Of a stretch of DNA of 64,000 bases, positions 9,495-62,864 are shown piece after piece. The first letter of the stretch is position 1, and the number at the start of each line of letters is the position of its first letter. The stretch is taken from positions 296,526-360,525 of the forward strand of contig JADJCU010000001.1 in NCBI GenBank assembly GCA_016703065.1, given 5' to 3'. The stretch is from a bacterium. Lineage in GTDB: Bacteria > Electryoneota > RPQS01. Under the pieces are notes generated by a model. That model was not told where the DNA came from and did no database searches. It saw only the letters and a list, made by a program, of their open reading frames with translations. The position numbers were made by a program, and so were the translations under genes.

Positions 9495-9798
9495 GCCGCT
9501 CGTCTCCTCGCTTCGCTGAATATGTAATTGCTCTGCCAATATTCTAAGAGACTGAATACTAACCCCTTTGTGGCAGAGTTGCAAGCCCCAAACACAACAT
9601 TTTCTTGGCTATTCTCAAACTCATAATATTCAATACTTTTGCGTAGATAATTGAGTTTAGTTTTTCGCAGGCGCGAACCCGCAGGAAGAGGCATTGCAAA
9701 CGGGCCTTGTCAAAACTGACTGGACATGTACCTAATTTGTCCGCCACTTACCGTGTTAGAGACCCGGTACATTCATGGTTTTCTCTGTGCAACATCCC

Positions 9799-9827
9799 TT
9801 GACTCCGCACTCGCCAACCCCGATATT
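9799..9827 (+). promoter_or_regulatory. sigma-70-like promoter with no ORF behind it
   Basis: TTGACT (9799-9804), a 17-nt spacer, then GATATT (9822-9827). Confidence 0.4.
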
Positions 9828-9833
9828 CTTGCT

Positions 9834-9990
9834 GTTAGCATTCAGCCGTGCAGGCGACGAGACGGACGATTATGCAGAGACTAATGTCGCGGTATTGTGT
9901 GAGATGATTTGATAGCTTGTTTACAGCATTGCGTTTGCTCTGGCGGATGGCGGCACAAGCCCCCGGTAATACCGGGGGCTTGTTGTTTGT
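9834..9990 (+). ncRNA. candidate small RNA (~155 nt) bounded by a promoter and a strong terminator; family unknown
   Basis: It lies between the 9799-9827 promoter and a perfect 12-bp hairpin CAAGCCCCCGGT/ACCGGGGGCTTG (9956-9982) followed by TTGTTTGT. There is no ORF of 60 aa or more on this strand. The next gene (10138) has its own promoter at 10055-10083. Confidence 0.25.
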
Positions 9991-59245: not shown

Positions 59246-59269
59246 GGCGGCACCCGCTGCGGGTGCCCC
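59246..59269. repeat. family B palindromic repeat, copy 2
   Basis: GGCGGCACCCGCTGCGGGTGCCCC, in the 5' leader of the 58136-59221 gene. Confidence 0.85.
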
Positions 59270-59811
59270 GCCTATCAACTACAAGGTCGTGCTTCCAAGT
59301 ACGACGCACTTCTCAAACAATCGGCCACTCCGGTATTGCCGCGTCAATCTCTTTCATCAATCGAATCGTCTCGCCCAGCGCCATCACCGTTTTCGCATAG
59401 TGCCGAATCTCATCAAACGCGAGCGTCCGCTCTTTGCGGTCCTTGAGCCACTTGTTGCAAACCTGATAACCCCCGACATGAAACTCCCACACTTCAGGCG
59501 CAACAGGCTCGAACCACTGCTTCTTGTTGATATACACGCGCCGCAGTTGATCATTGTATTCCACCTTCACCACCATGTTATCTCCCTTTTCAGGAAACAC
59601 CACCGGAGCTTTGTCAAGTTTCGGATGCTCCAAGAGATGATACTGCACCAACTCATACCCCAGCGGCACCAGCTTGCTGAACAATTCAAGATTCGATGTC
59701 AGCGGCACACGCGGAAAATCAATTTTCAAAAACTCCTTATACCGCTCCCGATAAGTCGGCGCATGAAACACCGCGTAGATATAATAAAAAATGTCTTCGG
59801 GGCCAAACTCT

Positions 59812-59857
59812 GATCTCCCCCCAAATCTGTCCGCAGATTTGGGGGGATTAAGGGGGG
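59812..59857 (+). repeat. family A nested-hairpin repeat, copy 4 (inside the RM coding sequence)
   Basis: GATCTCCCCCCAAATCTGTCCGCAGATTTGGGGGGATTAAGGGGGG, translated on the minus strand as 'PLNPPKSADRFGGRSE'. Confidence 0.85.
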
Positions 59858-59873
59858 TTGCCTTCTTCTTCGC

Positions 59874-59897
59874 GGCGGCACCCGCTGCGGGTGCCCC
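59874..59897. repeat. family B palindromic repeat, copy 3 (inside the RM coding sequence)
   Basis: GGCGGCACCCGCTGCGGGTGCCCC, translated as 'GAPAAGAA'. Confidence 0.85.
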
Positions 59898-61916
59898 GCT
59901 TTTCCCCCTCGCTTTAGCGGGGGGGGCAGGGGGGGGTAATCCACTTCCCCCCTCCTCCACAAACGTCAACCCCAACTTCCCCGCAAACTCCGCCACAAAC
60001 TTCGCATCCAAATTCGGCTTCCGCGGTGAGCCGTCGGCGGGGTAAAGGTAGAGAGGGAAAAAGTAATTGACCTCTTTCATTGAAACGGTATGATGTGTCG
60101 AAATTTGCCTCGTACACAATACATGCTCGAAACCGCGACTAATCTCCACTGTCCTAGTTGTTGACAGTGCAAGGTTTGGTCCCGCGAGCATGTGTTGCAT
60201 AACTTCGATGCGGGGCCGCTCAATTTCAGGAGGATAATAGAAGATGCATCTCATATCAAAAGGCCGGTAGAGAACTTGTGGGAATGAAGCATCTTCTTTG
60301 ACAGCCTTCTTTAGTTGTTTGACCATGCGCGCCTGGACTTCGTCATCGGTGATTCGAAATGCGCGCAAAGTGTCATCTTCAGTCTTGATCGCGGAGTTGA
60401 TTCTCTTGGTCAACACTCTTCTCGATCAAAGTCTATTAAGAAGGAATCGTTGGCAGTAACCAACCCCACAGAATTGGTATTGAATACTTTTTGAACAGAG
60501 GCGCCTTCGTTGTATTCGTCACCTTCTTCAGATTCAGACTTCGTAAACATGTAGAACGGTTTGCTCGGTTCAATCCTCTGCCATTCCGTATCCTTGTGGT
60601 CGTGCGCACCCAGCCACTCATATTTACTCTCTCGCTTACCCCATAACTCGCCTCGCTGAATAACAGCGTCGTCATTGTCGTGAGATTTGACAAAAAGGCC
60701 AACGGATACACCCTGCATAATATCAAAAACATTCTCGTCCTTGCCGCCGTCAGGAGATTGCTCTTTCTTCTTGCTATTGCCATGCAAATCTAACAAGTAA
60801 AGTTCATCAAACGTGCGTTGCAAACTGCGCCTCATCCCGCGAAACGTTGGATTGTCAAGATATCCATGACTTGTTATGAACGCTAAGATACCTTCTGCTC
60901 TTGTATCCCCAACTGCCCATTGCGCTATCCGCCATTGCCCATACCGTAAGAACTTTACATAATCATCCTGTAGCCACTTGGGGTTCTTTTCACCAAGCGG
61001 CTCCCCGTCAACAAAATAGTAATCTTTAATCAGTTTGCTAATCCACGGGCCGCTATTTGCCGAGTGGCCTGAATAAGGTGGATTACCAAGCACAACCATG
61101 ATCGGCAAACGATTCTTGACCGTTGCGGCGGCGTTTGCTTCTTGCGATATGATCCTCATTGTACCAAAGAACTCTTCGGCTTCATAGATCGTCTCCTCCA
61201 AACTATTCGTCAGATACACATGCAGACGCTGATCCTTTTCAATCTCGTACCCCCACTTTTCGCGGAGCTTCGGGTCAAGGTCGTGTCCGGCCAATTGCAT
61301 CGCCAACTTCAGATGCGCAACCGCATACGGAGCCATCTGCAACTCAAAGCCGTAGATGCGCGGAATCAAATGGTCTTTGACAAACGCCTGCCACGACCCC
61401 GCGTCGTTACGCTCCATGAACCGGTTGCGAATCAAATCCACGACCGCATAGAGAAACGTCCCCGTCCCGCACGCCGGATCAAGAATCAATATTTTGGGCA
61501 GTTTCCGCTTGACAAATTTATCTCCCTCTTTGACCTCAACTTCAATCGTGGACGTATCGGCCAAGCCGTCCTTCAAGCCGAACTTTTCCTTTAGCAGAAT
61601 ATCCACCGACCGCACGATATACGACACCACCGGCTCCGGCGTGTAATAGACACCGCGCCGCTTGCGCTCCTTGGGATCGTATTCAGACAGAAACGTCTCG
61701 TAGAAATGCAGAATCGGGTCTTCCTGCTTCGTGCGCTTCCCAAATGAAGCCAAAATCGCCTCAATATCCGAATGCGCCAGCACGGCCGTCAAGTCATCCA
61801 CAAACCCGATAAACGGCTCATCTTCGAGCGAGGTGGAGTGCATGGTCTCGAAGAGATTGCGGAGGAAGGGATTGCTCTTGGGGATTTCGCGGGCTGCTCC
61901 GGTGCGGGTGAACTCC

Positions 61917-61962
61917 GGTCTCCCCCCAAGTCCGTCTGCGGATTTGGGGGGACTAAGGGGGG
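61917..61962 (+). repeat. family A nested-hairpin repeat, copy 5 (inside the RM coding sequence)
   Basis: GGTCTCCCCCCAAGTCCGTCTGCGGATTTGGGGGGACTAAGGGGGG, translated as 'PLSPPKSADGLGGRP'. Confidence 0.85.
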
Positions 61963-62737
61963 CGTCTGCGTGTTGTATTCGCGCCGCAAACAATCCATAT
62001 CCGAGGGTTTGCGCGAACATATCCGCGAATTGCGCGTCGGTAATGTCCGGCAACAAGGTGCGCTCAAAAGCGGACTTCAGGTCCTGCATCAGTTCGGACG
62101 GTGTCCCGTCCGCAAACGTATTCGTAATCACCCGGTCAATGTTCTTGCACAAACCGGCCATGCGGGAAGCCAGCTCTTTGGGCGAATTAATTTCCCGCAC
62201 GTCCTGAGCCAGAAACGACTCGAGTAACTCGGTGAGTTCAGCTTCGCCATCCTTCAGAATTTTAATCTTCTTACCGGACTTCTTCGCCAGCCGCACCGTC
62301 CGCCGCTTTTCACCCTTGACATACCAGCGGAACTCGAGATAATCGGTCAAGATGAGATTCGGAAGCTGCAAGTAGCGTTCAAGCTGCTCTGACTTCTCAA
62401 TCTTGCTCAACTCTTCGCCGACCTTTTTGGTCTCGACATACCCCACCGGCAGATGAATCTGTCCCCGCACCTTTCTTCGAATCACAAAATCCGGCGCGCC
62501 GACCTTGATCTGCTTAGGGTCGTTCGACACGAGCAACTCTTTGCCGAATGATTCCAATAAGCCCTGAATCGCAGGCCTGTGCGTGTGCTCCGTATCATCT
62601 CCCAGCGCGATCTTCTCTTGCAGGGATTTCAAATAGTTCTTCAGCGCGTCCGGCATGTGCCTCAATTCCAATCTGTGATTCCGCTTTCCTCCTAATCTAC
62701 TCCCCTCACCCCACTTCCGCAAGCGCGCCCGCCCTCA

Positions 62738-62783
62738 GGTCTCCCCCCAAAATCGTCTGCGGTTTTGGGGGGACAAAGGGGGG
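62738..62783 (+). repeat. family A nested-hairpin repeat, copy 6
   Basis: GGTCTCCCCCCAAAATCGTCTGCGGTTTTGGGGGGACAAAGGGGGG, in the 5' leader of the RM gene. Confidence 0.85.
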
Positions 62784-62840
62784 CCTCCGCTCTCCCCGTC
62801 CTCCGTTCACGCGGGAAGGGCCGGCGGATGGGGTTCCCCC

Positions 62841-62864
62841 GGCGGCACCCGCTGCGGGTGCCCC
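62841..62864. repeat. family B palindromic repeat, copy 4
   Basis: GGCGGCACCCGCTGCGGGTGCCCC, in the 5' leader of the RM gene. Confidence 0.85.

Follow-up and report, generated by a model that had tools for sequence, protein, structure and literature searches.

The subject of this analysis is a composite of short repeats embedded in a restriction-modification (RM) gene of an Electryoneota bacterium (lineage RPQS01; assembly GCA_016703065.1, contig JADJCU010000001.1), within a stretch of 64,000 nucleotides that is referred to here as the window. Three adjoining repeat copies, separated by short spacers, lie in frame inside the gene at positions 59808-59936. The favoured interpretation, to which a probability of about 0.8 is attached, is that the composite is a pile-up of three small non-autonomous hairpin repeats in a hotspot loop of the protein, and that the in-frame states of this loop have been kept by selection. 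Comparison of related genes shows that the loop repeatedly collects elements and that its content turns over, by gain, decay and deletion, faster than the surrounding module diverges. The original prediction, made from the sequence of the window alone, had offered two readings: either insertions concentrate at a hotspot and selection keeps the frame open, or the gene is already dead and its open frame is a compositional accident. The first is supported by orthologues that carry different in-frame mobile DNA at the same loop and by leucyl-tRNA synthetase (LeuRS), in which the elements are read in the same frame. The evidence supports the view that mobile DNA is tolerated and accumulates in this loop, and speaks against a frame that is open by chance.

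Three hairpin repeats in one restriction-modification gene

On the minus strand, the C-terminal open reading frame (ORF) of the RM gene (59313-60416) reads ..LGLTFVEE-GGSGLPPPAPPAKARGKSGAPAAGAAAKKKATPLNPPKSADRFGGRSE-FGPEDIFYYIYAVFH.. without a stop codon, in agreement with the low-complexity translation originally described. The translated composite amounts to 48 residues between 'LGLTFVEE' and 'FGPEDIF', and corresponds to residues 155-202 of this ORF. The three elements that had been reported as lying back to back are all present, and are assigned to families A, B and C (Table 1). They had also been taken as a nested insertion; instead, they simply adjoin, with short spacers between them. 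The G8 and C6 tracts said to follow the third hairpin require a similar adjustment, since the G8 runs exist but are the G-blocks of the third element itself, whereas C6 at 59947-59952 represents the 'EEGG' codons common to all close orthologues.

Table 1. Positions of the RM gene, of the parts of the composite and of related repeat copies nearby (numbered from the first letter of the window)
Feature	Positions	Strand	Details
RM gene, C-terminal ORF	59313-60416	minus	367 aa; Type_ISP_C domain, E = 5e-80
RM gene, N-terminal ORF	60410-62722	minus	770 aa; N6_Mtase and MmeI_Mtase domains; N-terminus PD-ExK-like by eye
Gene-splitting frameshift	60410-60418	minus	GAAGAG TG TTGACC; outside homopolymers and repeats
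Family A copy	59808-59864	plus	CTCTGATCT-C6-AAATCTG-TCCG-CAGATTT-G6-ATTAA-G6 (C6 59817-22; stem 59823-29/59834-40; G6 59841-46; G6 59852-57); sense (minus) strand reads (T)PLNPPKSADRFGGRSE; ~65 copies in the genome
A-B spacer	59865-59873	minus	with outer B bases encodes AKKKA; AAGAAGAAGGCA also in orthologue L002
Family B palindrome	59874-59897	none	core GGCACCCGCTGCGGGTGCC 59877-59895; read as GAPAAGAA
Family C, triplex-type	59904-59936	plus	CCCCCTCGC-TTTA-GCGGGGGGGG-CA-GGGGGGGG (GCG8-CA-G8); sense strand LPPPAPPAKARG
Host junction	59937-59956	minus	GAGGAGGGGGGAAGTGGATTA, read as EEGGSGL
Second family A copy in RM gene	61913-61969	plus	in frame, N-terminal hotspot loop; PLSPPKSADGLGGRPE
A copy and B copy	62734-62862 (A 62734-62790; B 62844-62862)	plus	just upstream of the RM gene
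B copy	59249-59267	none	spacer between the RM gene and the gene for an FMN-dependent dehydrogenase

Folded as single-stranded DNA, the composite forms three strong hairpins (-50.2 kcal/mol, z = -6.2), and none of 200 shuffles folds as well. The C6-N-G6-N-G6 layout of the first element is found at 30 sites in the genome and at none in shuffled genomes, while family B has four copies in the window where 0.03 would be expected. A search of Rfam over 59600-60150 returned nothing near the gathering score (best 18 bits vs 40). At the host junction the query has one base fewer in its G-run than the orthologues L001-L003, which read KW.. at this point, and the longer C-runs of element C offset the difference. 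Taken by itself, however, the composite is weak evidence for selection on the frame.

The two ORFs that carry these features are, to judge from their domains, the halves of one chromosomal type IIG/ISP-like RM gene that has been split by a frameshift. Both the N6-adenine methylase and the Type_ISP_C domain expected of such an enzyme are present; they lie on one polypeptide in homologues and are divided between two ORFs here. When the halves are joined, 98% of the length of the protein aligns with thousands of single-chain homologues of ~1100 aa (orthologues and homologues 1084-1147 aa), of which the closest are 63-67% identical and the nearest named ones belong to Calditrichota. The break, which had been placed at about 60415, lies at 60410-60418 in this assembly: ..DFDREEC* ends at 60410-60412 and the family sequence resumes at 60413/60416 in the -1 frame. 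It lies 450 nt from the composite and is taken to be either an error of assembly or damage that arose independently and later. Recent decay could be its origin. The RM genes of this group occur patchily, and some are broken. The C-terminal part of the RM gene is matched in only two of eight same-genus genomes, and P0008 covers just the N-terminal 66% of the query protein. The RM gene of P0007 (L010 positions 9600-9900) is broken too, by a TAG stop (..GRVYIN*) that leaves the last ~60 codons as a separate ORF.

When the C-terminal ORF was modelled with AlphaFold (alignment of 36 sequences, mean pLDDT 73.8), pLDDT fell below 50 for residues 155-196 only. This low-scoring insert sits between helices 137-147 and 205-216, and the downstream domain has pLDDT values of 81-98. 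The loop is interpreted as a structurally permissive one at the surface of the protein. It is likely that the ribosome reads all three elements through, giving a disordered linker of ~48 residues rich in Pro, Gly, Ala and Lys.

Turnover at the same loop in orthologues and in other genes

The original prediction had proposed alignment with homologues as a check on the insert. In ~30 distant homologues the position is occupied only by the basal linker 'GxGDLKKTF', a short linker of eight residues, and there is no equivalent stretch; the hotspot reading is therefore not refuted. Three syntenic orthologues, L001, L002 and L003, are all intact, and the gene order RM gene, MarR, YceI is common to all; in L002, as in the query, a gene for an FMN-dehydrogenase additionally lies between the RM gene and its MarR/YceI neighbours. 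The loops of these orthologues differ in content. L001 has the identical B copy at the same codons, without C and without A. In L002 the B arm is decayed, the AAGAAGAAGGCA spacer is unchanged and A is represented by its GGGAGATCAGA end alone; the stretch is shorter than in the query by the 39 nt of the hairpin core. In L003 the C element is the same as in the query, a different palindrome stands where B would be, and a remnant of an A end is present. Between the query and L003 the lengths of the runs differ (C8/C8 vs C7/C7, and G5 vs G6), and KWI is changed to SGL.

Other relatives place larger elements at the same position. A complete DUF559 cassette with C-type ends occupies the same RM loop in P0007 and in the same-genus genome G001, and in G030, a genome of the same class (L017, G030:C120:7036-10500), the loop holds an in-frame IS200-like Y1 transposase domain (PF01797, E = 1.5e-8). 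Still other low-complexity inserts are seen at this loop in other lineages. The transposase domain of G030 lies inside an open frame of 1317 aa and has on either side copies of the peptide 'NHGQDAHDTD(A/T)H', which resemble translated hairpin repeats. A second loop of the RM protein (residue ~255, 61913-61969) behaves similarly: the query has A there and L002 has B, while L001 and L003 contain other triplex-type hairpins, which occur in both orientations. A scan with the conserved left flank TTGGGRTTGACKTTTGTGGAGGAGGG gave no matches in metagenomes and a single genome match, from the same organism as L003 (99.8% identity), and so no new alleles.

The background against which this turnover takes place is a mosaic gene. 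The methylase core and the C-terminal module have 86-99% DNA identity to L001 and L002 (97-99% for the flank just upstream of the insert), whereas the target-recognition (specificity) region has 40-50% DNA identity to the orthologues and the flanking genes 66-73%. Residues ~700-880 of the specificity region are swapped between the query and L001, L002 and L003 (10-40% amino acid identity). Homing-type co-conversion around the hotspot was considered and rejected, because the high identity (86-97%) extends over all of the C-terminal module and into the methylase core, with no gradient centred on the insert; the pattern of identities is that expected of modular recombination. Since the C-terminal module has diverged by ~8%, the element turnover in the loop happened within that time.

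These comparisons bear directly on the state of the reading frame while the loop was being built up. B and C are inherited in common with orthologues that are intact; at both loops the frame has been kept in four alleles whose indel histories differ; and the loss of one base from the G-run of the query is offset by C8/C8 in place of C7/C7. To these can be added the filled and empty sites of LeuRS, which are polymorphic with the same frame. All four points argue that the frame was under selection during the build-up. The inference is that only in-frame, stop-free states survive, and that the host gene was under selection when the elements arose.

The occurrence of the same elements in unrelated genes provides the second line of evidence. 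Family A copies in Pfam-confirmed genes all have one orientation and one frame, '(E)APLSPPKSADxFGGRxE', although three to four of the six frames are open. Two of these copies are in the RM gene, at least three are in LeuRS and one is in LpxB; a further copy lies in the lipoyl/E3-binding linker of the E2 acyltransferase, and another in an N6_N4 methylase-Mrr fusion. A C-type copy directly follows one of the LeuRS A copies. LeuRS, the E2 acyltransferase, LpxB and the N6_N4 Mtase-Mrr fusion all have Pfam matches on either side of the inserts. In eight other genomes of the genus, whose LeuRS is 80-87% identical, filled and empty states are found at the same three loops, with size differences of 45, 51 and 54 nt and with A and C-type elements stacked in varying combinations.

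At LeuRS sites 1 and 2 of G001, G002 and G007 (L036, L038, L033), where A or C is absent, there is a different insert, 'SQKSE(V/A)RS(Q/R)K', built of repeated (A)GTCAGAAG units that resemble the terminal TCAGAAG motif of family A. These units may be a footprint or another mini-repeat.

Repeat families, nuclease cassettes and alternative explanations

In the genome as a whole (3.09 Mb, nine contigs), ~65 copies of family A were counted by nhmmer, with the consensus CTCTGRTCT-C6-[7-bp stem, 3-4 nt loop, stem]-G6-ANNAA-G6-CYTCTGA. The stem comes in no fewer than five variants, each internally complementary as expected of compensatory change. Wobble pairs in the stems are unequally divided (T.G + G.T = 20 vs A.C + C.A = 9), a strand asymmetry that is suggestive only, as the copies are related. 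Family C has four copies in the genome and has in common with A the layout of C-block, loop, G-block, short second loop and G-block. The genome contains three ORFs of the DUF559 family (PF04480), which are Vsr-like nucleases, and all of them are bracketed by these repeats: inverted A copies flank those at C1:795826-796329 and C1:798685-799189, and an inverted pair of C copies flanks the third, at C8:~81910-82353. The ends of the C8 cassette, CCCCCTCGCTT(T/C)AGCG(8-10)(C)TAG(6-7), are near-identical to the third hairpin of the composite. It follows from this bracketing that A and C in the composite are lone cassette ends.

Family B has 16 copies, including a compensatory GGCAYCCGC..GCGGRTGCC variant, and seven of the 16 lie no more than 60 nt from an A copy, where 0.7% would be expected. 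Between genes, A, B and other palindromic units also make up tandem arrays, in a mosaic like that of bacterial interspersed mosaic elements (BIMEs). In the arrays at C2:156815-157553, C2:380763-381411, C2:387364-387877 and C3:211374-211905, whose units are of ~95-200 nt, A takes turns with palindromic modules such as GGGCGGCAGGCGTGCCGCCC and GTCATTCTGAAGCCGCTTCGGCTGAAGAATCC. The genome encodes a RAYT-like Y1 transposase with the HUH motif 'DHIHALL' (L005 1330-1722, where L005 is C1:563484-566759), which has on both sides (L005 1295-1878) a 48-nt inverted repeat of its own that includes the hairpin GGCAGGTG-TCTT-CACCTGCC. This 48-nt repeat recurs twice more downstream. The possibility that family B is the cognate repetitive extragenic palindrome (REP) of this gene was considered and is unsupported, the gene being bracketed by a different repeat. 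A common target sequence or target-site duplication was likewise sought for family A, and was set aside: GAAG(A)CC or TCAGAA is present at both junctions of some sites, but is inseparable from the terminal motifs of the element.

From these associations it can be proposed that the DUF559 nuclease would move A and C, that a RAYT-type transposase would move B, and that elements would land preferentially beside earlier elements. A literature search found no paper that, by title or abstract, addressed DUF559 together with insertion and repeats. A broader proposal, put forward as speculation, is that the triplex-type hairpins and DUF559 cassettes form an undescribed class of mobile element that lives translated within genes and lands preferentially beside earlier copies, building multi-element 'junkyards' in a few permissive loops. 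Lone copies of 39-57 nt might then be in-frame scars of departed cassettes, and the RM loop might be a class-wide landing pad for at least three kinds of mobile DNA, that is, nuclease cassettes, a Y1 transposase gene and REP-like palindromes.

Several observations weigh against the interpretation of the composite as a pile-up kept in frame by selection. The composite is stop-poor, with three of six frames open and 24% of mononucleotide shuffles open in the given frame, and the RM gene is itself frameshift-split in this assembly, so that selection on the frame may no longer operate today. The 'empty' L002 site keeps the GGGAGATCAGA end of A and may be a deletion product rather than a site that was never occupied. 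The nuclease could be a passenger, given that lone ends greatly outnumber cassettes; the link between B and RAYT is weak, as that gene has its own 48-nt repeats and a single B copy 280 nt away. Finally, at the 5' end of LeuRS (C6:227600-228300) the first ~40 codons (MLNDKKHISEQQYPFADIEAKWQTWW..) are out of frame with the rest. The break falls inside two back-to-back A copies with irregular runs (G5, C4, C7), and is either a homopolymer assembly error or a real lesion in an essential gene. Elsewhere in the assembly, at C3:495172-495560, there are ~400 nt of near-pure poly-G/poly-C that resemble a sequencing or assembly artefact. Together, the LeuRS break in G/C runs and the poly-G stretch mean that the lengths of G/C runs in this assembly may be unreliable.

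A first alternative retains the hotspot and changes the route by which it was filled: A and C would be leftovers of complete in-frame DUF559 cassettes from which deletion has removed the nuclease ORF and one end, not hairpins that arrived independently. Complete cassettes at exactly this loop in G001 and P0007 are in line with this idea, the more so as their right end shares its orientation and frame (TPP.PP..GG) with the lone C copy and as every A copy within a Pfam-confirmed gene has the 'right-end' orientation with respect to the ORF around it. Set against this, ~60 lone A copies face only four that are cassette-bound, many of the lone copies sit in the intergenic mosaic arrays, and the lone A and C-type copies of LeuRS are present in some species and missing from others, while no cassette was observed at those sites. 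An origin of A and C as cassette leftovers is accordingly possible but doubtful.

The second alternative is the other half of the original prediction, namely that the RM gene was dead before the elements arrived and that its open frame is a by-product of G+C-rich, stop-poor repeats. Part of this stands, in that the composite is indeed stop-poor and the gene is split at 60410-60418, and the broken relatives (the TAG stop near the C-terminus in P0007, the truncated match in P0008) and the scarcity of the C-terminal part within the genus (two of eight genomes) could be read in the same way. The explanation fails, however, on the cross-genome and genome-wide pattern. The frame is kept at both RM insertion sites, offsetting indels are found inside the composite, and the common descent of B and C with the intact L001 and L003 places them within functional genes. 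Moreover, there is one lesion in 3.4 kb of a gene whose fused product aligns over nearly its whole length with its homologues, and the same elements are read in the same frame in the essential LeuRS. Death of the gene before the elements arrived is therefore considered unlikely.

RM genes are classic phase-variable loci, and a third alternative holds that the two G8/C8 runs of element C constitute a contingency switch, making the gene phase-variable by slipped-strand mispairing. The two G8 runs within the ORF are among only 45 G/C runs of at least 8 nt in 3.09 Mb (~17 of the 45 sit in one probably artefactual poly-G stretch), and run lengths do vary among orthologues (C7/C7 vs C8/C8; G6 vs G5). 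Yet no sign of switching was seen, the actual frameshift lies outside any run, and the same element types are found in LeuRS, where on/off switching would be lethal; a switch of this kind is improbable. The last alternative, an assembly artefact produced by repeat-induced mis-joining or mis-called homopolymers, can draw on the poly-G stretch and on the LeuRS frame break inside G/C runs, but is scarcely credible. An independent Logan assembly, L001, has the same B copy at those codons; L003, L004 and L031, which come from two ENA assemblies and one GenBank metagenome-assembled genome, share element C; and the flanks are collinear with those of the orthologues.

Significance and comparison with known systems

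If the composite is a pile-up of hairpin repeats in a hotspot loop, small selfish repeats can build up within proteins, and a few permissive loops can serve as common dumping grounds for unrelated mobile elements. G/C-rich triplex-type repeats, long known but unexplained, are now tied to a candidate partner gene, DUF559. Where conserved enzymes of uncultured bacteria contain Pro/Gly stretches of low complexity, these may have come from inserted repeats, and the G/C runs that such repeats bring with them are likely sources of frameshifts, whether real or arising from assembly.

The closest parallel in way of working is provided by the Rickettsia palindromic elements (RPEs), which, as summarised in one later account, are in-frame repeats in unrelated, even essential, genes, are translated as extra peptides at positions compatible with the fold, and are absent from orthologues (Ogata et al. 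2000, 2002, via PMC10969869). The elements described here are similarly dispersed, hairpin-forming and in frame without stops in unrelated intact genes, and have filled and empty sites in orthologues. The RPEs are described in that account as ~100-150 bp in length, Rickettsia-specific and without an associated enzyme gene (PMC10969869). By comparison with RPEs as they are presented there, the present elements are much shorter (33-57 nt) and are built as C-block/G-block/G-block; A and C, two of the three families, form the inverted ends of DUF559 nuclease cassettes, and several families stack in one loop, where relatives put a nuclease cassette or a transposase gene. The likeness proposed is one of behaviour, not of membership in an RPE sequence family, and the host phylum is different from that of Rickettsia.

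In structure, A and C recall the intrastrand-triplex repeats TMECO, PIT and BoxC. These have one C-rich block followed by two that are G-rich, with a first loop after the C-rich block and a second, of 2-5 nt (often TTA-like), between the G-rich ones; they occur as inverted pairs and have been connected with instability of the local sequence (Holder et al. 2015, PMC4666352). A and C resemble TMECO and PIT in their three-block layout and inverted pairs, and may form triplexes. The geometry of element C (9-nt blocks, with loops of 4 nt and 2 nt) is very close to that of the published repeats (PMC4666352), whereas the first loop of family A, of 18 nt and self-complementary, is unlike that of TMECO. 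TMECO was reported to be always intergenic and without an associated gene (PMC4666352), and the E. coli TMECO consensus, CCCTCNCCC N3-6 GGGNGAGGG N3 GGGNGAGGG, has no match in this genome.

Family B recalls the REP/BIME systems, being a short perfect palindrome with compensatory variants and mosaic clusters in a genome that encodes a RAYT-like gene. It differs from REP/RAYT pairs in that it does not form an inverted pair around that gene, is without a general GTAG-type 5' motif, and is translated within a gene here. There is also a resemblance to inteins and in-frame homing endonucleases, as selfish DNA that keeps the host frame, and the same loop in relatives holds an in-frame nuclease ORF; unlike inteins, however, the insert has no splicing domain and so presumably stays in the protein, and the copies here are without the nuclease. 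Finally, the G8/C8 runs in an RM coding sequence, with lengths that differ between orthologues, are reminiscent of phase-variable RM loci governed by homopolymers, from which the present gene is distinguished by a frameshift that lies elsewhere and not in a run.

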